Shown: positions 1 to 9,947, counted from the stretch's first letter. The stretch: 64,000 nt of DNA from an uncultured Fidelibacterota bacterium (GCA_937888365.1 CALBFA010000073.1:44686-108685), one strand, 5' to 3'. Made by a program: numbers and translations. The notes: generated by a model from the sequence alone, not told the origin.

Positions 1-306
1 ACATTAACTTATAATCCAACTACCAGCATTGATGGCTCAAAACGCCCCATACAGATGTCATTTTCAGCCTACCCAAATCCTACAAACGACTTTATTTCAC
101 TCCAAATTCCCACCGAATACGCAGACGGTATTTCCACGATGAAGATTTACGATATTACTGGACGAAACGTCTTAGAAAAACAACATTCCATAAAAACAGG
201 ACAAAATGCGTATATAGATGTTAGTTCACTATCGTCAGGTATGTACTTTGTCTCTGTTCAACAAGGTAATCTAATAACTCAAACAAAAATACAGGTGGTA
301 AAATAA
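1..306 (+). CDS. T9SS type A sorting (C-terminal) domain protein, 5' part outside the window
   Basis: Frame is open from base 1. Sequence ...AYPNPTNDFISL...IYDITGRNV...IDVSSLSSGMYFV...TKIQVVK matches the Por secretion CTD pattern (YPNP, YDxxG, SGxYF, terminal K). Confidence 0.88.
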   Translation, partial: TLTYNPTTSIDGSKRPIQMSFSAYPNPTNDFISLQIPTEYADGISTMKIYDITGRNVLEKQHSIKTGQNAYIDVSSLSSGMYFVSVQQGNLITQTKIQVVK

Positions 307-881
307 TGAAAACATTAAGACGCATCAGTATCATTTTATTAGCATTATTTATTCTAAATTTCGCAGGAGATAAAGTTTTTCCACATTCTAAGATAAAGAC
401 AATGAAGGGTGAGACTATTTCTTCGGGGAAAATACTCAATCATAAATTGACATTGATTAATTTTTGGTCCACTTGGTGTGTACCCTGTAAAAAGGAAATG
501 AAATACCTTCAGGAACTTCATCAAAAATATGCTAAAGATGATTTCCAAGTCGTTGGTATTTCAATAGATGATTCAAAAACTGTTTCGCGCGTTCCATCTA
601 TTATAAAAAGCAAAAAATTAAGCTATCCAATTTTTTTAGATACGGATAAATCGCTTTATAGAAAATTTCATACTTCGTCCGTTCCATTTTCCGTACTCGT
701 TGATCAAAATGGAAATATTATTTGGGAGCATCAAGGCTATACGCCTGGAGATGAAAAATTGATGGAAAAACAAATTTTTGCGTTTTTAAATCAAAAGAAC
801 CACATAAAAGATTTGCCCAAAACAAAAACATTAAGAGAAAAACCACAAGACAAAGGTCGAATTCAAAAAGCAAACGGCTAA
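306..881 (+). CDS. TlpA/ResA-like thiol-disulfide oxidoreductase, exported
   Basis: N-terminal signal/TM segment; INFWSTWCVPC motif; SVP cis-Pro loop; start overlaps the upstream stop (TAATG). Confidence 0.9.
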   Translation: MKTLRRISIILLALFILNFAGDKVFPHSKIKTMKGETISSGKILNHKLTLINFWSTWCVPCKKEMKYLQELHQKYAKDDFQVVGISIDDSKTVSRVPSIIKSKKLSYPIFLDTDKSLYRKFHTSSVPFSVLVDQNGNIIWEHQGYTPGDEKLMEKQIFAFLNQKNHIKDLPKTKTLREKPQDKGRIQKANG

Positions 882-959
882 CTTCATAGGTTTTGAAAGC
901 GCAACCCCGTTTTTTTATTCAGAATATAGACGTTGAAATATTTGAAATATTGAGAATGA

Positions 960-2687
960 ATGAATTTTAAAATATCAAGACGTTTATTGTTCGTCTGGAT
1001 ACTATTCTTATCAGCGACACTAATCGCGCAATCCATTGAATATAGTTTAGGATTTCAATCAAGATTAGGTCGAGGTGACCAAATTGGAATTCCTTATGAC
1101 TATTCTGAAAGCTACTTAGATTTACAAGCATCTGCGAAGAATTGGACATTGATGACTCAGCTCGAGTGGAGTCAACCCCCTGAATATGGGCGTGAATTAA
1201 TTGGCATTCATCGCTTTTCTGTCGAGCGGTTTAAGGGCTCAGCATTATTTCAGTTGGGGCATTTAGCGCATATTTTTGGGTCTGGAATGAGCTTGAATTT
1301 ATATGAAGATCAAAACATCAATCTTGACAATATGCCATTGGGTTTAAAACTATCTTTTAGAACAAAAAATGACGCATTGATTACAGCTTTGGTGGGACGT
1401 AAAGACAATTTTCAATACTATGCGCCTGGGAGCAATAGTCGTGTTCCTGATGGAGATGTCTCATACGACATTGCAGGTATTGAACTTGAAAAGTCACTTT
1501 TTGATGGAGCGATTGGATTTCAACCTCGCTTGGTCTGGAGCAATTTTAAATCTGATATTCAGCACTTATCTCTCAATACGCCTGGGCAACTCATCCAAAA
1601 TCAAATACGCCAGCAAATGATGACGTGGGATATGGGCGTTTCAAGCGGATTCTATGGATTGAACTGGGACATAAAAATGGATGCATCATACCAAATGAAA
1701 CTGGCCGATGTTCCCTTTCTTAATCAAGAAATTCATTTTGATGCTCATGTCGCTTCAATCGTCAATACCTCATTGGATCAAAATTTTTCTGGAAAATCTG
1801 TATATTCTCGGTTCTCCTGGTACCCTGATTGGATGACAGCGAGTTTAGAATATAAATATTACGGATTGAATCAAACGTCTCCTAATGACCGTATTGATGT
1901 GTATCGCTTAGGTCTCCAACCCTTGCCTTTTCAAGTGGGTCCAACGGTCATTCGGCAACATGAATTAGCGCTCCTCGCATCCGTAACACATCCCGTTGAT
2001 TATGCGGACGAAATGGGTTTTTATGGCGAAATTATTATCCCTATGCAAAATTTTATATTAAGTATGGATGCCACTATTGCATCATGGACAACAAATTGGT
2101 CCAACGAATTTTATCAAGACAGTCGTTATTTCCCTTCCTTACATTCAACGTATCAACCCTTTTGGGAACTCCATTCTGAATTTGATTACAGTGGCGATTC
2201 CTTCACATCAAAATCAGGCATTGCGCTGACGGAATCAGCATTAAACGGAATTGATGTCGCCGAGATTACGCGTCATTTTACACTTGTCCCAACTTATTTT
2301 TCCTGGCACTTCAATGACACATACTCAATCGGTGGATTAATGGAGTATCAAAACTCTTCGGTTTTTTCATTGCCATTTGAAACTGATATTAGATCACATG
2401 GGCATGATTATGAGAGTTATCATTTTATTGCTTCTGTTGATATAATGTCCAAATATTCATTGGCTTATATTTCCGATTTTAGTTCGGATCCAGCGCTCTA
2501 TCAAGGTGATCGAACAGAAGGATTTCAATCGTGGAATAGTGTCGAAGTTTCTTCTCGCACCCTTGAAAATTTATCAATTAGGATGAGTTATGGCTCGGAA
2601 AAAGGAGGCGTTCGCTGCACAGGAGGTGTTTGCCGACTGATCAATCCTTTCGAAGGTTTTCGCATGATTATGGAGTATAGACTATGA
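960..2687 (+). CDS. DUF6029-like outer-membrane beta-barrel protein
   Basis: Signal peptide; amphipathic beta-strand pattern; FGSGMSL motif; C-terminal GGVRCTGGVCR..PFEGFR..EYRL; TlpA/Omp28 neighbours typical of this family. Confidence 0.75.
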   Translation: MNFKISRRLLFVWILFLSATLIAQSIEYSLGFQSRLGRGDQIGIPYDYSESYLDLQASAKNWTLMTQLEWSQPPEYGRELIGIHRFSVERFKGSALFQLGHLAHIFGSGMSLNLYEDQNINLDNMPLGLKLSFRTKNDALITALVGRKDNFQYYAPGSNSRVPDGDVSYDIAGIELEKSLFDGAIGFQPRLVWSNFKSDIQHLSLNTPGQLIQNQIRQQMMTWDMGVSSGFYGLNWDIKMDASYQMKLADVPFLNQEIHFDAHVASIVNTSLDQNFSGKSVYSRFSWYPDWMTASLEYKYYGLNQTSPNDRIDVYRLGLQPLPFQVGPTVIRQHELALLASVTHPVDYADEMGFYGEIIIPMQNFILSMDATIASWTTNWSNEFYQDSRYFPSLHSTYQPFWELHSEFDYSGDSFTSKSGIALTESALNGIDVAEITRHFTLVPTYFSWHFNDTYSIGGLMEYQNSSVFSLPFETDIRSHGHDYESYHFIASVDIMSKYSLAYISDFSSDPALYQGDRTEGFQSWNSVEVSSRTLENLSIRMSYGSEKGGVRCTGGVCRLINPFEGFRMIMEYRL

Positions 2688-3898
2688 AATATTTTCTAAT
2701 GATTTTTAGTCTTATTTTATTGATGAGCTGTGACGTTTGGGAAAATTGGTCATTACCAAATTCAACAATTAGCTCCCATATCATCATTCAAAAGAATAAA
2801 GAGACCATAATTACACTTCAAGAGGTTTTCAAATTAGAGAATCAAGTTCTACAAATAAATAATATTGATGCCTCTGACACTTCGCTCTTAGCTATTACTG
2901 AAGGGCAGAATGATACCCTTATTTTATGGGGTAAAGATATTGGTAGTGCCACTATTTCAGCGACATTTGAATCAGAGTATTATTATGATGCACTTCTCAA
3001 TATTGAGATAACAGATGGCTATCCCGTCGATACGAAAATGGGTGAAACGTCTATCATCAACTTGAGCAATATTTTTAATATTGATAGCACTGGATTTGAT
3101 TCAATTGCTGTTTTGAGTCCTTCAAGTGACGTTGCAACTATAAATCTATTATCAAATGGACGCATTGAAATATATGGCGTATGGCCCGGAGAACTTCAAA
3201 GTCAAATTGAATTATATTTTGCGGGAAATTTGGTTGAAATTGGCTTACTCGCCATCAACGTTACCAACCCATTACGTGCACTGGTTGAGTTATTTACGAA
3301 TTCAGGGTGCATTAATTGTCCTGTCGCAAATGAATTCCTTGATGATAAATTAGTAATGCATGATGAATACATGTCTATTATACGTTACCATGCTTATTGG
3401 CCTGAATTTGGTGATATTATGTATCATTATAATACACCCGTCAATCAAGCTCGCTTAGACTTCTATATGGTTCCTCTAACACCGTATCTTGTAGTGAATG
3501 GAAATATTATTGGTGAATGGAACGAAGCGGATTGGGAACAGTCATTGCAAGAATCTTATGAAATAGAATCTCCTTTGTATCTCAATCTAGGAGCAAATAT
3601 AATAAGTGATTCCTTAATTGCAGTTCTTGATGTTATTGAAGTTGAAAATATTACGGAAGTCCTTACGCTAAGCTTCGTTTTGATTGAAGATTCTATTGAG
3701 TATGCCGGAACAAATGGTGAAATATTGCATCAACAAGTGATGCGAAAAAAAATTGATTATGCGTTAGCAGACATCGAAAACGGATCTTGGCGTGCCAGTT
3801 TCTTTTTAGATGATGTCTTAGTTCGTGAGCATTTATCGGTAGTGGCCTATGTACAGAACAACACAAAGGTCGTTTATCAATCCACGGTTATTAGATAA
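2684..3898 (+). CDS. Omp28-related outer-membrane lipoprotein with thioredoxin-like CxxC domain
   Basis: Lipobox LLMSC; LVELFTNSGCINCP; YH motif; TP..VNG; LIED...HQQVMR; VVAYVQN. Confidence 0.82.
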   Translation: MKYFLMIFSLILLMSCDVWENWSLPNSTISSHIIIQKNKETIITLQEVFKLENQVLQINNIDASDTSLLAITEGQNDTLILWGKDIGSATISATFESEYYYDALLNIEITDGYPVDTKMGETSIINLSNIFNIDSTGFDSIAVLSPSSDVATINLLSNGRIEIYGVWPGELQSQIELYFAGNLVEIGLLAINVTNPLRALVELFTNSGCINCPVANEFLDDKLVMHDEYMSIIRYHAYWPEFGDIMYHYNTPVNQARLDFYMVPLTPYLVVNGNIIGEWNEADWEQSLQESYEIESPLYLNLGANIISDSLIAVLDVIEVENITEVLTLSFVLIEDSIEYAGTNGEILHQQVMRKKIDYALADIENGSWRASFFLDDVLVREHLSVVAYVQNNTKVVYQSTVIR

Positions 3899-3929: not shown

Positions 3930-3962
3930 TTCAAAAAGGCTCCTCAAAGGAGCCTTTTTGAA
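3930..3962. terminator. Bidirectional rho-independent terminator
   Basis: TTCAAAAAGGCTCCT-CAA-AGGAGCCTTTTTGAA, a perfect 15-bp stem between convergent operons. Confidence 0.85.
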
Positions 3963-3982: not shown

Positions 3983-4606
3983 TTAACACCCACCAGCGGG
4001 TGCTTTCTTTGCCTTTTTACGTTTGATTACGGGTTTGTTTGTGTTCGTTGCAGGGGCCGTTGCTTGGATTTCTGCACCACCGCCACCGAAATATTCACTG
4101 GCTCCTTTTTTGAAATCGTATTTCGCGATTTCTTCATCAGAACTATAAATGGACGGTGCCTTTGGGCTAAGAATCGATTCAAACCAATAATTTAAGCCAC
4201 CTTGAAGAACATAATTATTTTCATAGCCTAATTGACGTAAAACCATCCAAGCTTGATGAGAATACATGGTTCCATTAGAATAAAATACATTCATTTTGAC
4301 ACCCTGATCTAAAATGTCAACGTAGTCGTCATTTAGAATATCAGCGATAGGAATATTAAATGCGTTGGTCAAATGGTACGTAGCGAATTCATCGGGAGAG
4401 CGAACATCAATAATTTGAATGGATGGATCTTTCGTGATAATCCAATGGGCCAAATCTTCAGGCGAAATAATTTCGGATCCGTCTCTAACCTCAGTTATCA
4501 TATCAGAAGCCGTGAGTTTATACCGTTTGGTCGTATTTTCGGGTACCATAGCAATGACGACACCCAACAATAAAGTAACAGCTAATGTCAATATACGTGC
4601 ATTCAT
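3983..4606 (-). CDS. Membrane-anchored rhodanese-like protein with C-terminal GGC tail
   Basis: IIDVRSPDEF..YHL.NAFNIP and LGY.N.YVLQGGLNYW motifs. Start moved to the ATG at 4606 (MNARIL, signal/TM) just after the upstream stop. Active-site loop reads VFYSNG. Confidence 0.82.
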   Translation of the reverse strand: MNARILTLAVTLLLGVVIAMVPENTTKRYKLTASDMITEVRDGSEIISPEDLAHWIITKDPSIQIIDVRSPDEFATYHLTNAFNIPIADILNDDYVDILDQGVKMNVFYSNGTMYSHQAWMVLRQLGYENNYVLQGGLNYWFESILSPKAPSIYSSDEEIAKYDFKKGASEYFGGGGAEIQATAPATNTNKPVIKRKKAKKAPAGGC

Positions 4607-4607
4607 T

Positions 4608-5198
4608 TTAATACTCCTCTCTAGTGAATTTCTTCTCGGCCCATTCGCCAATCCAAAACATGATTCCAGCAGCAATAATGACGAGTAAAGCCATCACACC
4701 ACCCGAAACACCCAGTATTTCGCTGATTTTGGGATTCCCTAAATTACCAGAATTATAAAATTCTTTCCAAAGAGGATAACCTTCTCCGAAAACAAAGATG
4801 CCAATAACGACGCCTGCGAGAAATATCATTGCATCAATTTTACCGATGGCAGCAGCGCAAACACTGGTGCCAGGACAGAAACCGCCAATAATAAAGCCAG
4901 CCCCCATAATGACGCCGCCACCTATTGCAGACCAAATAAAAGTTGGGTTAACATAGACGAGGTTTAAATCAATCCATCCGAAAAGACTAAAATATAGAAG
5001 CCCAAGCATGGCGGTGACAGCTGCGGTGAAGAAAACTTTTAAAACGACCGTATCATATCCATAAAATAATCCGGCCAATTTTCGGCTTGACGAAAATCCA
5101 GCTTGTTCTAATGCAAAACCAAATCCGATACCAATAATAAACGCAATGAGCATATTCCAATCTTGCCCAATGATTTCTTGTGGAACTAAAGGACCCAT
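4608..5198 (-). CDS. YeeE/YedE family sulfur-compound transporter subunit
   Basis: Hydrophobic; GFGFALEQAGF and GFIIGGFCPGTS motifs. Confidence 0.88.
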   Translation of the reverse strand: MGPLVPQEIIGQDWNMLIAFIIGIGFGFALEQAGFSSSRKLAGLFYGYDTVVLKVFFTAAVTAMLGLLYFSLFGWIDLNLVYVNPTFIWSAIGGGVIMGAGFIIGGFCPGTSVCAAAIGKIDAMIFLAGVVIGIFVFGEGYPLWKEFYNSGNLGNPKISEILGVSGGVMALLVIIAAGIMFWIGEWAEKKFTREEY

Positions 5199-5207
5199 GA
5201 TTGCCTC

Positions 5208-5717
5208 CTAAATCCAATTTTTTCTAAAAGTGTAAGCTAAGCCAAAAGCTGTTCCAAAAATGGCAGCCATGGTTATAAAGCCGCCAAGAGATAGTACCGC
5301 CATTCCTGTAAGTGCGGAACCACTCGTACAGCCTCGACCCAACTGTGAACCAAAACCAAAAAGAACACCGCCAATTAAAGCCATGGTAAGTCTCTTATTC
5401 GCTGTTATTTTTGGAAAATGTTCAACTTTGATTTTAAGACGACCTGAAAGTGCACCCGAGATAAAACCGCCAACTAAAACGCCCAAAATTTCAAAAGAAA
5501 GCCAAGAGTTTAGAGGGTTTTTACCATCGGCGACGTACTTGCCAAAATAGCCGTTTGTTTCAACATGTTCTGCAGCTACAATATGCTCAGAAGCTACTAA
5601 AAGATTTTTAAACGCTCCACTTGCTCCTAGACCGCGTCCGGAAAAGAAAAAAGCCATGAGCAAAACCAAGCCAAGCATCAAGCCAGCTAGGTAGGGATTC
5701 ATATACTTTGTTTTCAT
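5208..5717 (-). CDS. YeeE/YedE family sulfur-compound transporter subunit
   Basis: NPYLAG, GLGASG and GGVLFGFGSQLGRGCTSG motifs. Confidence 0.88.
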   Translation of the reverse strand: MKTKYMNPYLAGLMLGLVLLMAFFFSGRGLGASGAFKNLLVASEHIVAAEHVETNGYFGKYVADGKNPLNSWLSFEILGVLVGGFISGALSGRLKIKVEHFPKITANKRLTMALIGGVLFGFGSQLGRGCTSGSALTGMAVLSLGGFITMAAIFGTAFGLAYTFRKNWI

Positions 5718-5752
5718 CAGTTATTCCTTTATTTAATTAATATTGGCATTTA

Positions 5753-6694
5753 TCAATACAACCAACGACTTGCTTGGCCCGCTGAAACAACGATGAAGCG
5801 CAACATGAGATTTCCCATAACGATTAAAACGACAGGGACAATGGCTGGTATAAATTTTTTCCGCAATTCCATTAATTCGAGTCCACCAGGTAGAATGAGT
5901 CCCATTGCAACGACAAGAACCCAAAAGGGGACCGTATAACTTCCGCCGAGGAACATATGAGCGGCTTCAATATGAACAGCAGTACTTGCCAATAATCCCA
6001 TAAATAAGTGGACGATTAAAAAAAATTCGGTGACGATTAAAAATAAGTCAATCTTGATAAAATGTTTTTTCTCTTCATGAGATTTGGCGAAATAAGCCGT
6101 TAAAGCGGCGGCAGCAGACAATCCTGAAATTAAAAATAAAGGGCCGAGGATTGATGTGTTCCAAAAGGGTCGTGCATTAAACGCCGAGAGCAAAATCCCC
6201 GTGTACATTCCCAATGTAGTGGCTAAAGCTATCAAACCGTAAGCCATGCTTTTTTCGTATTTTTTTAAGACATCAATTAAATCATAAATGAGTTGATATT
6301 TTAAGTCGAGTTTTGGGAACATATCCGGTAGCCATCGCAATATCCAAGCTATGGAAAGCGGTGTTATAAATAAAAGTGTCCAAGCGCCCCAAGACATCGG
6401 AGACTCCCATCGGATATTGGTGTAGAGTTGCCAGAAATAGAGTTTATGAGACAAATCAAACAACAATGCCAGTAAGCCAATACCAATAAGTACTGGAACC
6501 GCTAAAGGCATCCACATGACGGAAACAGGATATTTTTTAGCTTTCCCTTGTATCGAAAGCAAGGCTGCAAAAAAAAGTAAACCTGCAGAAATTCCGCCTA
6601 AAAAAAGGTAAAGTGGAATTTCCCAACCCCACGCGTGTAAGACGGGATCAATCCCTGGATTCATCCGCCCGCTGGTAATAATTTCTTCAATCAT
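5753..6694 (-). CDS. psrC: Polysulfide reductase membrane anchor (NrfD/PsrC family)
   Basis: WGWEIPLYLFLGGISAG, SPMSWGAW, YTGILL...RPFWN; about 8 TM helices; follows the 4Fe-4S subunit. Confidence 0.85.
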   Translation of the reverse strand: MIEEIITSGRMNPGIDPVLHAWGWEIPLYLFLGGISAGLLFFAALLSIQGKAKKYPVSVMWMPLAVPVLIGIGLLALLFDLSHKLYFWQLYTNIRWESPMSWGAWTLLFITPLSIAWILRWLPDMFPKLDLKYQLIYDLIDVLKKYEKSMAYGLIALATTLGMYTGILLSAFNARPFWNTSILGPLFLISGLSAAAALTAYFAKSHEEKKHFIKIDLFLIVTEFFLIVHLFMGLLASTAVHIEAAHMFLGGSYTVPFWVLVVAMGLILPGGLELMELRKKFIPAIVPVVLIVMGNLMLRFIVVSAGQASRWLY

Positions 6695-6706
6695 AGCAGA
6701 TTCCCT

Positions 6707-7240
6707 TTATGTTAAGTAATAAACTTTGGGTTTTGTGCCGGCTTCTGGAATGAGGGTTTTCCATTTCCGTCGTGCGATTGTTTTACTAATTTCGCTATTG
6801 GGGTCGTCAATATCACCAAAAATCATGGCATGCGTTGGGCAAACGGACACGCAGGATGGCTTTTGCCCTAGCTCCACCCGATGGAAACAGAATGTGCATT
6901 TATCAACGTATCCTTCGGGATGTACATATCGTGCGTCATAGGGACATGACGTAATACAAGCTTTGCACCCGATACATTCATCTTCATCGACAAGAACAAT
7001 TCCGCCTTCGACTTTATGGCTCGCTTCCGTTGGGCAGGTTCGAACGCAAGGCGCATCTTCGCAATGATTGCACCGTTCGGATCGAATTTCCATGGCGAGT
7101 TGAGGATAGGTTCCCGTCGTAACTTCCACGATCCAATCACGGCAATATCCAATTGGGACATTGTTTTCAGTTTGGCAGGCGACAACACAGTCATTACATC
7201 CGACACATCTTATGGTATCAATGGCCATTGCGTATCTCAT
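6707..7240 (-). CDS. psrB: Polysulfide reductase Fe-S subunit (4Fe-4S dicluster, NrfC/PsrB)
   Basis: CVGCNDCVVAC, CNHCEDAPCVRTCP, CIGCKACITSCP, CTFC...CVSVCP. Confidence 0.88.
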   Translation of the reverse strand: MRYAMAIDTIRCVGCNDCVVACQTENNVPIGYCRDWIVEVTTGTYPQLAMEIRSERCNHCEDAPCVRTCPTEASHKVEGGIVLVDEDECIGCKACITSCPYDARYVHPEGYVDKCTFCFHRVELGQKPSCVSVCPTHAMIFGDIDDPNSEISKTIARRKWKTLIPEAGTKPKVYYLT

Positions 7241-9483
7241 GATGCCACCTCCTCTTTGCCTTCAAATCGAAAGGTTACGAAATTGCCTCGCATTCCTGTG
7301 CCGCCCATTATTGGGTCAATATGTACGCGTGTAATGAGGTCTGAATCGCTGGCTCCTTTTCCGAACGCTCGTTTCAGCCGTTTATCCGTATGTCCAAATC
7401 CATGCACCATATAAACGGAATCAAAACGAATCCTTTCCGTAACGCGCACTTTGATTGGTGTGTCAGAGACAACGCCATCTTGATTCTCAAGCCATATTTT
7501 TTGGTCGTTTTTCAATCCCCATTCTTTCGCAACTTTTGGATTTACCCAGACAGAGTTTTCGTCCATTAAATCATTCAAGTTCGGATTGTTGGATGTGCGA
7601 CTAAAGGTATGCATGGGAGCGCGACCGTAAATGAGTCGATAAAATCCAGATTGAGGTTCTTCATGTGCTGTGTATTGCGGCATTGGATCAAAGCCTTCTT
7701 CTTCAAGAGAAGTCGAATATAGCTCAATTTTACCAGTATTTGTATTGAACTCAAAATCCTCCAAGCCCGTCATGGGATACATGTCGTCTTCTTCGCGTAC
7801 AAATTTTTTGACGCCGATTTGCTTCATTTCTTCGAGGGACGAACCGACTTGTTTTAGTTGCCAATCCAATAGTTCGGACACATCCTCATAAGGGAAGTAA
7901 TCTTTAAGTCCTAATCGATTGGCCAATTGTTTCGCCATCCACCATGCTGGTTTTGTATCAAATTTGGGTTCAGCAGCAGGCATTCTCAATGCGATATTGG
8001 GTTCTCGATTTTGAGAAACGCGAATCATGTCGTAGCGCTCTAAATACGTACATTCAGGTAAAACAACATCAGCGTAGCCCGTAATTTCCATCGGCATGGT
8101 ATCAACAACAACCATTAGCTCTAAAGCATTGATAGCAGCCAAAGTCTTTTCACGCTCTGGAAGCGTATGAATAAGATTCGTCCCATTGACAATCCATCCT
8201 TTTAGAGATGCGGGTTTTTCTAGTGTTGGAGTTGACGCATCAACGAATCCATTGGCAAGAGACAAGCCAGCCAAGTTATACTTTCCGTTTAAGTCATCAC
8301 GCCAGGTGCGCTTTAATTTGGGATATTTAGGGTGTGGATATTTGGGTAATTTTGCTTTTACAGGATAATAAAACCCCCCTCGTTGTCCCCATGAACCGAG
8401 GAGCGCATTTAAAATAGCAACAGCTCTAAGTCGTTGAGTGTCATCACCATACCATGTAACATGACGTCCTGGATGAACAATGACAGCCGGTGCTGCATTG
8501 GCCATTTCTTTTGCTGTTTTACGAATAACATCAGGCTTTATAGTTGTGATGCCATAAGCCCATTCGGGTGTCATAGTTTTAACATGCTCTTTAAGTTGAT
8601 CAAAACCGTAAGCATATTTTTCGACATATTTCTTGTTATAAAGTTCATCATAAATAAGTACGTGAATCCACGATAGGAGCAACGCAATATCGGTGGCAGG
8701 TTTAATAGGCAACCAATGTTTTGATTTACCAGCCACAATTGAAAAACGAGGATCAACCGTAATGATTGTTGCACCTTTTCCATTGGCTTCGGACAATTCT
8801 TGTACTTGACCATTATGCATATTTTCGCCTAAATGCGAGCCTATAAGAACAAGACATTTTGTATCGCGAATGTCAGTGCGCTCCGGTGAACTGATGCCTT
8901 CACCGTAAGTTGCAAAAAATGCGACTTCGCGAGGTCCGCGACATTGTGCATACGAAGGTGCGGTAATGCTATCTGATCCATAGGATTTCATGAGGTGACC
9001 TAAAAAATCGCCACCACTGCCATGTGAAAAAAGCGCCATTGACTCTGAACCGTATTCGGTGCGAATATGATTCATTTTATTGCCAATGAAATCAAAGGCC
9101 TCATCCCAGGTTGCTTGTTTGTATTTCTGAATGCCATTTTCAGTGACACGAAGGAGTGGCGTTTTGAGACGATCGTCGTCATAATACATACCGACACCTC
9201 CAGTGCCTCGCGGACAAAAACGACCATTTGAATGGGGATCATCATCATTGCCTGTAATTTTCCAAATATCACCGTCGGCATTTGTATGGACCCAACCAGC
9301 GCATTTCCAAAAACAGATTTCGCAATAGGTTGGCGTTCGTTTTGAGTAAAGTCCGGGTAATTTATCAGGTGCTAAAATTGCACCTTTTAATGAATCAAAA
9401 ATAGGGTTCGCGATGGCTAAACCGCCCATTCCCATTCCCGCGATTCGAATAAATTCCCGCCTTGTTAATTGTTTTTCGCTCAT
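7237..9483 (-). CDS. psrA: Molybdopterin oxidoreductase catalytic subunit, polysulfide/thiosulfate reductase (PsrA/PhsA)
   Basis: Start moved to the ATG at 9483 (ATGA overlap with merR). Tat signal TRREFIR; CEICFWKC...CPRG cluster; YAQCRG Mo-ligand Cys; ADVVLP..TYLER; C-terminal molydop-binding domain. Confidence 0.85.
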   Translation of the reverse strand: MSEKQLTRREFIRIAGMGMGGLAIANPIFDSLKGAILAPDKLPGLYSKRTPTYCEICFWKCAGWVHTNADGDIWKITGNDDDPHSNGRFCPRGTGGVGMYYDDDRLKTPLLRVTENGIQKYKQATWDEAFDFIGNKMNHIRTEYGSESMALFSHGSGGDFLGHLMKSYGSDSITAPSYAQCRGPREVAFFATYGEGISSPERTDIRDTKCLVLIGSHLGENMHNGQVQELSEANGKGATIITVDPRFSIVAGKSKHWLPIKPATDIALLLSWIHVLIYDELYNKKYVEKYAYGFDQLKEHVKTMTPEWAYGITTIKPDVIRKTAKEMANAAPAVIVHPGRHVTWYGDDTQRLRAVAILNALLGSWGQRGGFYYPVKAKLPKYPHPKYPKLKRTWRDDLNGKYNLAGLSLANGFVDASTPTLEKPASLKGWIVNGTNLIHTLPEREKTLAAINALELMVVVDTMPMEITGYADVVLPECTYLERYDMIRVSQNREPNIALRMPAAEPKFDTKPAWWMAKQLANRLGLKDYFPYEDVSELLDWQLKQVGSSLEEMKQIGVKKFVREEDDMYPMTGLEDFEFNTNTGKIELYSTSLEEEGFDPMPQYTAHEEPQSGFYRLIYGRAPMHTFSRTSNNPNLNDLMDENSVWVNPKVAKEWGLKNDQKIWLENQDGVVSDTPIKVRVTERIRFDSVYMVHGFGHTDKRLKRAFGKGASDSDLITRVHIDPIMGGTGMRGNFVTFRFEGKEEVAS

Positions 9484-9947
9484 TTGCCTTTCCAATTCTC
9501 TTTCAAAAAAGTTTTCATATTGTGGCATGTTGATAAGTCTTGATATACCATACAATCTCTGCAATCCGCCATCTTACAGCATTCACCTACATTTGTAAGT
9601 GACCAACAAGGTGCTAAAGTAGAGGTGTAGGCATCACAGTTTTTCCGATCTTTGTCGGAGCATTGAATCATATCCCAACACGGCGCCATACTCAACATCA
9701 TTTTAATGCCGGCAAGATTAAGTCCGTTTTCTTCAATCATGATGCGGATACATTTCAAGCGTTCAATATCCGCTTGGGAATAGAGACGACGTTTTGAGTT
9801 AGTGCGCTTGGGGGAGAGTAAGCCTTCTGTTTCGTACATTCTTAACGAGTGTACTGAAACGCCAATCAGTTCCGCTACAATCCCAATTGTATATACAGGT
9901 TTGTGTTTGTCGTTTAATGTGTCGGATAGGGTTTGAAGCGGGCTCAT
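9480..9947 (-). CDS. MerR-family regulator with Cys-rich C-terminal 'two-CW'-like domain
   Basis: YTIGIVAELIGVSVHSLRMYE...R.YSQADI HTH; C-terminal CW-x4-C...CDAY...CW...CC...CRDC. Confidence 0.85.
   Translation of the reverse strand: MSPLQTLSDTLNDKHKPVYTIGIVAELIGVSVHSLRMYETEGLLSPKRTNSKRRLYSQADIERLKCIRIMIEENGLNLAGIKMMLSMAPCWDMIQCSDKDRKNCDAYTSTLAPCWSLTNVGECCKMADCRDCMVYQDLSTCHNMKTFLKENWKGK

Follow-up and report, generated by a model that had tools for sequence, protein, structure and literature searches.

How could bacteria keep cysteine- and selenocysteine-bearing enzymes at their surface reduced, on the far side of the outer membrane? We know of no supply of reducing power to surface proteins across that membrane besides heme-based conduits. 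The question is raised by four genes that occupy the first 3,898 nucleotides of a 64,000-nucleotide stretch of DNA (hereafter, the window) from an uncultured Fidelibacterota bacterium (GCA_937888365.1 CALBFA010000073.1:44686-108685). In order, they encode a probably PorA-like type IX secretion system (T9SS) cargo protein, a TlpA-like thiol-disulfide oxidoreductase, a predicted outer-membrane beta-barrel of the family DUF6029 and an Omp28-like thioredoxin-fold lipoprotein. We propose that this four-gene set may bring thiol chemistry from one side of the outer membrane to the other. More precisely, we put at roughly 0.4 the probability that it is an envelope thiol-redox system of the Fibrobacteres-Chlorobi-Bacteroidetes (FCB) group, whose barrel would link TlpA in the periplasm to thioredoxin-fold enzymes at the cell surface.

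How would such a system work? The TlpA-like periplasmic reductase would be the electron donor, presumably fed by the single DsbD-type protein of the genome. DUF6029 would form a 24-stranded outer-membrane pore with an invariant cross-strand cysteine pair on a hairpin at its outer mouth, and the Omp28-like thioredoxin-fold lipoprotein would accept the reducing equivalents as the oxidoreductase of the cell surface, a role that counterparts of T9SS-secreted, selenocysteine-bearing or redoxin type would fill in other lineages. The barrel could link the two compartments in one of two ways: electrons may hop via its own cysteine pair, C553/C558, acting as a relay station, or donor and acceptor may meet in its wide lumen. 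The PorA-like protein, which has a cysteine pair of its own, would be an additional surface client or partner. Whether DUF6029 deserves to be called the outer-membrane counterpart of DsbD, with a strained disulfide or the lumen passing electrons from TlpA to surface thioredoxin- or selenoprotein-type enzymes, is more doubtful, and we offer that description tentatively. We infer the compartments, the direction of electron flow and the contacts between the proteins; the observations on which the proposal is built are gene linkage, invariant cysteine pairs, folds, export signals and selenocysteine variants.

Among the window's own locus and 19 Marinimicrobial relatives, each of the four proteins keeps exactly one invariant cysteine pair (19-20 orthologues). 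The pair is C77/C82 (CFGSAC) in the cargo, C58/C61 in the TlpA-like protein and C553/C558 in the barrel, each kept in 20/20 loci, and C209/C212 in the lipoprotein, kept together with the lipobox cysteine C16 in 19/19; the barrels of these relatives are 33-40% identical to the window's. The barrel protein is a DUF6029 member (PF19494, 63.3 bits against a cut-off of 27, matched in two stretches) and the product of the sole DUF6029 open reading frame (ORF) found by a profile search of its genome, which is 2.53 Mb in size and 95% complete. As an earlier, sequence-only reading of this locus had described, it is a barrel-like protein of 575 residues with exactly two cysteines, both within GGVRCTGGVCR, their codons starting at nucleotides 2616 and 2631. 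An exhaustive search of 1.84 billion representatives recovered 252 barrel relatives at E <= 1e-3 (word-index homologue searches reached merely 2 barrel relatives and 3 lipoprotein relatives). Of the 109 listed relatives of at least 450 residues, 107 carry a CxxxxC motif in their last 45 residues, the exceptions being P0106 and P0122, and 55 of those 107 contain no cysteine besides this pair. An alignment of 98 diverse DUF6029 members has eight invariant columns, G100, G109, G128, G146, G550, C553, G556 and C558, and the hairpin motif derived from the present family alignment, GGxxCxxGxC ahead of the last strand, is found in the window's protein. The C553/C558 pair is therefore the hallmark of the DUF6029 family, and what had been noticed in one sequence proves to be invariant in the 98 aligned members.

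Where in the barrel does this pair lie? The AlphaFold2 (AF2) model (predicted local distance difference test score, pLDDT, 93.9; predicted template modelling score, pTM, 0.89) has 24 long strands that take up residues 27-574 of 575, and no plug domain or extra domain is present in it. All even-to-odd connections are 2-5 residues long, and long loops occur at residues 102-126, 303-350 and 376-400. The cysteines sit on a mini-hairpin (550-554/557-561) that follows strand 23 (538-547) and precedes the last strand (564-574), which bears out their placement just before the last strand in the sequence-only reading; C553 lies opposite C558 across a GG turn, as a cross-strand pair. In standard barrel topology the termini are periplasmic and the periplasmic turns short. 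The cysteine mini-hairpin would therefore be the last extracellular loop of the barrel (548-563). No motif of DUF6029 is better conserved than this hairpin, which is unusual for an exposed loop and suggests that it packs on other conserved loops at the mouth or within the pore.

The top full-length matches in an exhaustive structural search are the ushers FimD (3ohn_B, Z 16.9 over 362 aa) and PapC (2vqi, Z 15.5), with further matches to MtrB (Z 14.6 over 403 residues) and to Wzi (2ynk, Z 14.4, covering part of the model only). At identities of 6-12%, we read the usher, MtrB and Wzi matches as pointing to a large plugless barrel and not to membership in any of these families. Foldseek returned generic TonB-dependent transporters (template modelling score, TM, 0.40-0.48), and a PDB sequence search with the barrel profile yielded spurious RecA-fusion matches only, with 0 matched stretches. 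A link to copper through a Foldseek match to OprC was considered and rejected as a generic large-barrel match (TM 0.45-0.48, root-mean-square deviation, rmsd, >11). If the model is correct, an usher-sized plugless barrel would be wide enough in principle for a 15-kDa domain. In the literature searched, DUF6029 appears for its likeness to Wzi: HHpred similarity of Wzi-barrel homologues near outer-membrane polysaccharide export (OPX) genes to DUF6029 is described in PMC9603273. It is nevertheless highly improbable that DUF6029 is a Wzi-like polysaccharide-export or -binding barrel, the role suggested in that paper, with the redox genes as bystanders. Wzi does turn up in the fold search, but its match is limited to residues 27-444 and is outranked by the ushers, by AlgE and by several porins; the strand count of the model is 24, against the 18 cited for Wzi-type barrels, and the Pfam-scanned flanks showed no polysaccharide genes.

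Is the putative surface partner an enzyme? The window's lipoprotein has a lipobox-like LLMSC (C16), the GCINCP that the sequence-only reading had pointed out (residues 208-213) and a thioredoxin fold in its model. The name Omp28, however, denotes a resemblance at the sequence level, because the matches to DUF1223 (26.6 bits versus 30.7) and to Omp28 (PF11551, 18.6 versus 34.9; NF033782, 26.9 versus 150) fall below their cut-offs; proteins in the same position in Bacteroidota-phylum loci are true PF11551 Omp28 proteins (42-84 bits). The AF2 model of the lipoprotein (pLDDT 93.1) consists of two beta-sandwich domains, a canonical thioredoxin fold and a C-terminal beta-sandwich. C209/C212 come after strand 199-205, where helix 212-225 begins, and P267 stands ahead of strand 268-271, so that the protein displays both the CxxC at the N-terminus of helix 1 and the conserved proline before strand 3 of a thioredoxin fold. 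Residues E202, C209, C212, P267 and R354 are invariant in 45 sequences of the lipoprotein family. HBP35 (5y1a, E 9e-11, rmsd 3.1 over 243 columns) heads the fold search, with 2axo next; the family profile matches 2axo (E 5.4e-7) and Omp28 2r2c (E 2.6e-4), and 2r2c is not among the fold matches listed. In the Marinimicrobial lipoproteins of L040, L044 and L047 the first beta-sandwich region is replaced by (L/I/V)DxCGVCNG-like cysteine-motif repeats, which appear to be a different, cysteine-rich spacer.

Relatives of this lipoprotein provide a further hint of chemistry. Eight Marinimicrobial cassettes that are more distant have, next to the lipoprotein gene on its downstream side, an ORF for a signal peptide followed by an Omp28-like domain with an in-frame TGA, which falls exactly at the first cysteine of the CxxC motif (...FTxTW-U-xYC...), the profile aligning across it; a T9SS C-terminal domain (CTD) was detected in 6 of the 8. 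Likewise, a comparable U-x-x-C protein adjoins TlpA in a WOR-3 cassette (L100:1409-2161). The TGA-bearing Omp28-like proteins are probable selenoproteins. Selenocysteine at the attacking position speaks for redox catalysis and not for a structural or metal-binding role. HBP35 is a surface protein with cysteine-dependent thioredoxin activity in vitro (PMC2907840). On the basis of the helix-N-terminal CxxC, the invariant proline, the selenocysteine relatives and the activity of HBP35, the surface thioredoxin-fold partner looks catalytic.

The surface location of this partner is predicted from export signals. Orthologues from outside the Marinimicrobia begin directly with the thioredoxin domain and end with a T9SS CTD in place of the lipobox, and because of this sorting domain they are predicted to be exported to the surface. 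By orthology, the Marinimicrobial lipoprotein should be surface-exposed as well. Most Marinimicrobial lipoproteins have Asp or Glu at position +2 after the lipobox cysteine, which fits the Bacteroidota lipoprotein export signal.

At the other end of the proposed chain, the TlpA-like protein matches Redoxin (81.6 bits, cut-off 26.6) and AhpC-TSA (74.9 bits), has a hydrophobic N-terminus read as a signal peptide and carries WCVPC at residues 57-61, in agreement with the exported TlpA of the sequence-only reading. It thus combines the Redoxin/AhpC-TSA fold, the WCxPC active site and the export signal of TlpA/ResA-type redoxins. Its closest PDB relative is 2m72_A (E 8.3e-20). We call it TlpA-like, and not an equivalog, because it falls below the NCBIfam cut-offs for TlpA (NF047696, 63.8 bits versus 230) and ResA-like proteins (NF002854, 80.6 versus 170). 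The genome contains one DsbD_TM gene.

Do these genes belong together? We compared loci in four sets, each collected by way of the barrel gene and including related genomes, which are non-independent samples in the counts that follow. Set 1 comprises the window's own locus and its 19 relatives, from a search of 41 genomes of which 31 had a match. Set 2 comes from one scan of GTDB species representatives (80 loci in all) with the pattern E[KR]GG[VLI]xCTGG, which was taken from a 14-sequence alignment and biases the set toward CTGG-type barrels; it is divided into Marinimicrobial-type loci (2a) and loci of other phyla (2b: Kapaibacteria, Ignavibacteria, Chlorobiota, Bacteroidota, Calditrichota, Cloacimonadota and WOR-3). 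Set 3 holds the best-scoring 30 loci from a search of 201 evenly drawn genomes in the phylum of a 'Bacteroidetes' metagenome-assembled genome, 52 of them with DUF6029, and set 4 holds 12 of the 22 matching genomes of that search that had no assigned locus, chosen for a split low-scoring match on large contigs. The order cargo-tlpA-barrel-lipoprotein recurs in 19/20 loci of set 1, the twentieth being cut by a contig end. Among loci with adequate flanks, all 28 of set 2a have both a TlpA-like gene and a thioredoxin-like CxxC gene within 1.5 kb of the barrel (28 each, neither in 0). The corresponding counts for the 38 loci of set 2b are 25 with the TlpA-like gene, 26 with the CxxC gene, 15 with both and 2 with neither, and for the 30 loci of set 3 they are 25, 23, 18 and 0. 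In each of the 12 loci of set 4, TlpA lies upstream of the barrel and a CPHC Redoxin-family lipoprotein lies downstream of it (both in 12, neither in 0). Across sets 2-4, a thioredoxin-fold CxxC gene lies within 1.5 kb of the barrel in 106/108 loci (28/28, 36/38, 30/30 and 12/12) and a TlpA-like gene in 90/108. With 7 Redoxin ORFs in 2.53 Mb, an arithmetic estimate of the chance of finding one within a 4.7-kb span is ~1%, yet the association recurs in almost every locus examined; the adjacency of a redoxin gene to the barrel is thus more than chance. The co-occurrence extends far beyond the Marinimicrobia, through phyla of the FCB group.

Set 4 (L135-L146) is informative as to what is being retained. 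Its barrels form a divergent DUF6029 subfamily of ~505 aa with the motif CTSGIC, and the genes downstream encode two paralogous CPHC redoxins, one lipoprotein-like (12/12) and one in a T9SS-CTD form (11/12). Because the Omp28-like partner is here replaced by CPHC redoxins, thioredoxin-fold chemistry would be what is conserved; as far as gene content can tell, this shows selection keeping a surface thioredoxin-fold enzyme beside the barrel and not any specific passenger. The barrel of L135 also has a PD40/TolB-like gene farther upstream.

Several observations weigh against a redox system that spans the outer membrane. With its cysteine pair in the last extracellular loop of the model, the barrel could be contacted there by TlpA only if TlpA entered the lumen or the hairpin folded inwards. 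TlpA is not adjacent to the barrel in 13/38 loci of set 2b and 5/30 of set 3, and in L107, L109 and L112 its place directly upstream of the barrel is taken by a tetratricopeptide repeat (TPR) protein of ~210 aa. Loci of Calditrichota, Cloacimonadota and WOR-3 mostly have TlpA and the barrel with unrelated downstream genes, so that TlpA and barrel form the minimal unit there. Under the E. coli rule, Asp or Glu at +2 would by analogy mean retention of the lipoprotein in the inner membrane. Omp28-type proteins outnumber the barrel, as two further, stronger Omp28-domain ORFs occur in the same genome without a DUF6029 gene beside them. No barrel hairpin bears selenocysteine, all 106 motif matches being Cys/Cys. 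Finally, a cross-strand disulfide can be purely structural. The TPR protein of L107, L109 and L112, for its part, has weak matches to the TPR region of Slam (surface-lipoprotein assembly modifier), which are generic only.

The last of these points has its own explanation of the locus, which we regard as unlikely: the cysteine pair would be a structural staple in a porin or anchor with a substrate unrelated to thiols, and the thioredoxin-fold neighbours would assist biogenesis by forming, reducing or isomerising disulfides in the barrel and in the co-encoded surface proteins before these are exported. Short cross-strand disulfides at hairpin tips are a common stabilising element, LptD-type barrels set a precedent in depending on periplasmic Dsb proteins for their disulfides, and TlpA and the barrel are retained on their own in Calditrichota, Cloacimonadota and WOR-3 loci. 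Helpers do not, however, explain surface-targeted neighbours that are catalytically equipped, the selenocysteine forms or the swapped family of set 4, nor do they account for a hairpin that is better conserved than any other motif of DUF6029 when extracellular loops usually vary.

The cargo gene opens another alternative. Its complete form (L003:9599-10306, 235 aa) starts 402 nt upstream of the window and encodes a signal peptide, an immunoglobulin (Ig)-like N-domain of ~130 aa, as identified by an Atlas structure search, and a type A C-terminal sorting domain (PF18962 Por_Secre_tail, 63.4 bits, cut-off 27; TIGR04183, 53.6 bits, cut-off 23), the sorting-domain models being the sole matches in an NCBIfam scan of the complete protein. 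With the T9SS translocon protein SprA in the genome (SprA_N, 120.7 bits, in a 2165-aa ORF), it has what defines a T9SS type A cargo. The top PDB match of its N-domain profile among 177,635 PDB sequences is the PorA N-domain 6kjk, at a marginal E of 0.046 (16.7 bits), and the conserved W..S.C-x4-C.P motif aligns with LCFGQC.LP of PorA (LC-x3/4-C-xP). The T9SS cargo of the sequence-only reading is therefore not generic cargo but probably PorA-like. That reading is partly supported: two of the findings that it named as refuting, a cysteine pair that is not conserved and genes that do not co-occur, are contradicted here by sequence, and its core, the passage of electrons through the barrel pair, stays a hypothesis. 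A PorA-like N-domain is adjacent to the barrel in 20/20 close relatives but in 25/80, 7/30 and 0/12 loci of the remaining sets (some of these sequences were used to build the profile), for which reason the PorA-like protein would be an accessory component of the module.

Because the cargo is probably PorA-like, DUF6029 may be read instead as an usher-like export pore or dock that takes the PorA-like protein, and perhaps the Omp28-like protein, to the surface independently of T9SS. TlpA would then keep the cysteines of the passengers reduced in the periplasm, and the hairpin pair would gate the pore or transiently tether a passenger. We consider this rather unlikely. In its favour, in Porphyromonas gingivalis, PorA (PGN_0123/PG2172; PMC7712824, Table 2) has as its neighbours by locus tag Omp28 (PG2173) and a thioredoxin-domain protein (PG2175; PMC13744359), with PG_2174, listed as an uncharacterised outer-membrane vesicle (OMV) protein (PMC4335976), between them; the PorA N-domain is reported to be similar to the FimH lectin domain (PMC7712824), and over its full length the barrel is matched best by the 24-stranded FimD and PapC ushers. 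Moreover, the Marinimicrobial Omp28-like protein has no CTD and would need another route if surface-exposed. Against this stand the marginal similarity to PorA on which the passenger assignment depends, the scarcity of PorA-like neighbours outside the close relatives, where thioredoxin-fold partners are almost always present, the export route that most partners already have in their T9SS CTD, and a barrel model without the plug and periplasmic domains of an usher. For PorA, a role as PorY ligand and T9SS gene regulator is known from P. gingivalis genetics only (PMC7712824, PMC12152298), and the four PorA cysteines are described as dispensable for PorXY activation (PMC12152298).

We return to the window itself for the arrangement of the genes (Table 1). 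The four co-oriented ORFs described by the sequence-only reading are all on the plus strand. They are tightly packed, with junctions that by coordinates are a 1-nt overlap, a 78-nt gap and the 4-nt ATGA overlap of barrel and lipoprotein genes that had been pointed out (2684-2687), and for this reason they look like one operon. The terminator-like hairpin that separates the lipoprotein gene from the convergent rhodanese gene likely marks the operon's end. Short identical contigs match all four genes in two marine metatranscriptome runs of one study and span the cargo/tlpA (120-409) and barrel/lipoprotein (2644-2830) junctions; since such libraries can contain DNA, they are at most a weak hint of expression, and gene parts without cover carry no meaning. 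One contig of run X8 (depth 3.8) has an extra A behind position 3744 in the lipoprotein gene, which could reflect strain variation or a mistake in assembly.

Table 1. Coordinates of the module, of its minus-strand neighbours in the window and of related ORFs elsewhere.
Feature	Position	Strand	Basis or remark
PorA-like T9SS cargo gene, 3' part	1..306	+	ORF open at window start; Por_Secre_tail
TlpA/ResA-like periplasmic thiol-disulfide oxidoreductase (putative), 191 aa	306..881	+	Redoxin, signal peptide, WCVPC
DUF6029 outer-membrane beta-barrel (predicted), 575 aa	960..2687	+	PF19494; AF2 model
C553-T-G-G-V-C558 codons, invariant Cys pair of DUF6029	2616..2633	+	Alignment, AF2 model
Omp28-like thioredoxin-fold lipoprotein, 404 aa	2684..3898	+	Lipobox, AF2 fold
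Terminator-like hairpin, 15 pairs	3930..3962 (L003:13930-13962)	.	Consensus scan only
Rhodanese-domain protein gene	3983..4675	-	Convergent with module
Sulf_transp gene, half-size	4608..5198	-	
Sulf_transp gene, half-size	5208..5717	-	
NrfD gene	5753..6694	-	psr-like operon
4Fe-4S dicluster gene	6707..7240	-	psr-like operon
Molybdopterin oxidoreductase gene	7237..9564	-	psr-like operon
TGA-bearing Omp28-like ORFs	After lipoprotein gene in L039, L040, L042, L043, L047, L050, L051, L054		
Extra Omp28-domain ORF, own genome, 831 aa	G000:C36:3580-4050		
Extra Omp28-domain ORF, own genome, 327 aa	G000:C104:748-1209		

The minus-strand genes beyond the hairpin (3983-9564) appear from their domains to be a polysulfide/thiosulfate-reductase-type cluster. 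A functional tie of the module to the rhodanese and psr genes was rejected, as such neighbours are not kept beside DUF6029 elsewhere. Upstream of the cargo gene and on the same strand (L003:7102-9342) lie genes for a pyridine-nucleotide disulfide oxidoreductase of 451 aa and for an OsmC-like protein of 142 aa, further thiol/peroxide-related genes near the module. The sulfur genes bear on a different account of the locus, in which the module would pass a thiophilic solute (a soft metal, selenium, or polysulfide or another sulfur species) and not electrons, from the surface CxxC protein to the barrel cysteine pair and on to the periplasmic CxxC protein. Three successive cysteine-pair stations would suit such a hand-over of a ligand, SelA follows the barrel in L096, and the window has on its opposite strand a rhodanese, two sulfur-transport halves and the psr-like NrfD/4Fe-4S/molybdopterin operon. 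We judge this account very unlikely: the sulfur-gene neighbours are not conserved in other loci, the redoxin-fold WCxPC and the CxxC with its conserved proline are redox signatures, conspicuous His or Met metal ligands are lacking, and the OprC matches are of the generic large-barrel kind. The probability that remains after the five readings weighed here belongs to something else.

What would follow if electrons are indeed relayed across the outer membrane? The relay would be a categorically new system, the first conduit to move electrons through a bacterial outer membrane by way of thiols, and would account for how bacteria of the FCB group keep surface cysteine and selenocysteine enzymes reduced. 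The parts are of known kinds; it is their arrangement around an outer-membrane barrel that is new. The gene for a large barrel with an invariant redox-type cysteine hairpin nearly always lies between those for a periplasmic reductase and for thioredoxin-fold enzymes targeted to the surface, probable selenoproteins among them. No paper on a DUF6029/TlpA/Omp28 module was found in the literature searched, which leaves out most subscription journals. The module is spread over the abundant marine Marinimicrobia and phyla related to the Bacteroidota, and whether the outcome is a relay or an export pore, DUF6029 and Omp28 would gain a function. PorA's T9SS-independent way to the surface of the periodontal pathogen P. 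gingivalis is itself a puzzle, and P. gingivalis is genetically accessible.

Finally, how does the module compare with known systems? The closest arrangement of genes is that of P. gingivalis, where PG2175, PG2174, PG2173 (2r2c) and PG2172 (6kjk) have consecutive locus tags, and profiles built from the window match both 2r2c and 6kjk. By tag order, however, the PorA gene comes last there, whereas the PorA-like gene is first in the window; the window's lipoprotein differs from P. gingivalis Omp28 in two extra N-terminal beta-sandwich domains and in its sub-cut-off Omp28 score, and the similarity of its cargo to PorA is marginal. In the literature searched, PorA alone of these proteins has been studied functionally, and PG2173-PG2175 were met in proteome tables only. 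HBP35 (5y1a) shares a thioredoxin domain and a beta-sandwich with the C-terminal half of the lipoprotein, but it is a hemin-binding T9SS cargo with a CTD, has 17% identity to the window's protein, and no barrel partner has been described for it. The FimD and PapC ushers (3ohn, 2vqi) are 24-stranded and of similar size, their matches over 362-366 residues spanning the whole DUF6029 model; in contrast to the model they have a plug and N- and C-terminal periplasmic domains, and at 9-12% identity the match may reflect barrel size only. In chemistry, the nearest likeness is to the pathways that run from DsbD or CcdA to TlpA, ResA or CcmG, which are also chains of thioredoxin-fold cysteine pairs with a cysteine-pair membrane protein between two compartments. 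The membrane component of those pathways is helical and lies in the inner membrane, whereas that of the window would be an outer-membrane beta-barrel with its cysteine pair on an extracellular hairpin. In concept, lastly, the proposed module resembles MtrCAB (MtrB 6r2q): in both, a large outer-membrane barrel would let redox proteins of the two sides exchange electrons, but the carriers of MtrCAB are hemes, whereas those of the heme-free window module would be thiols.

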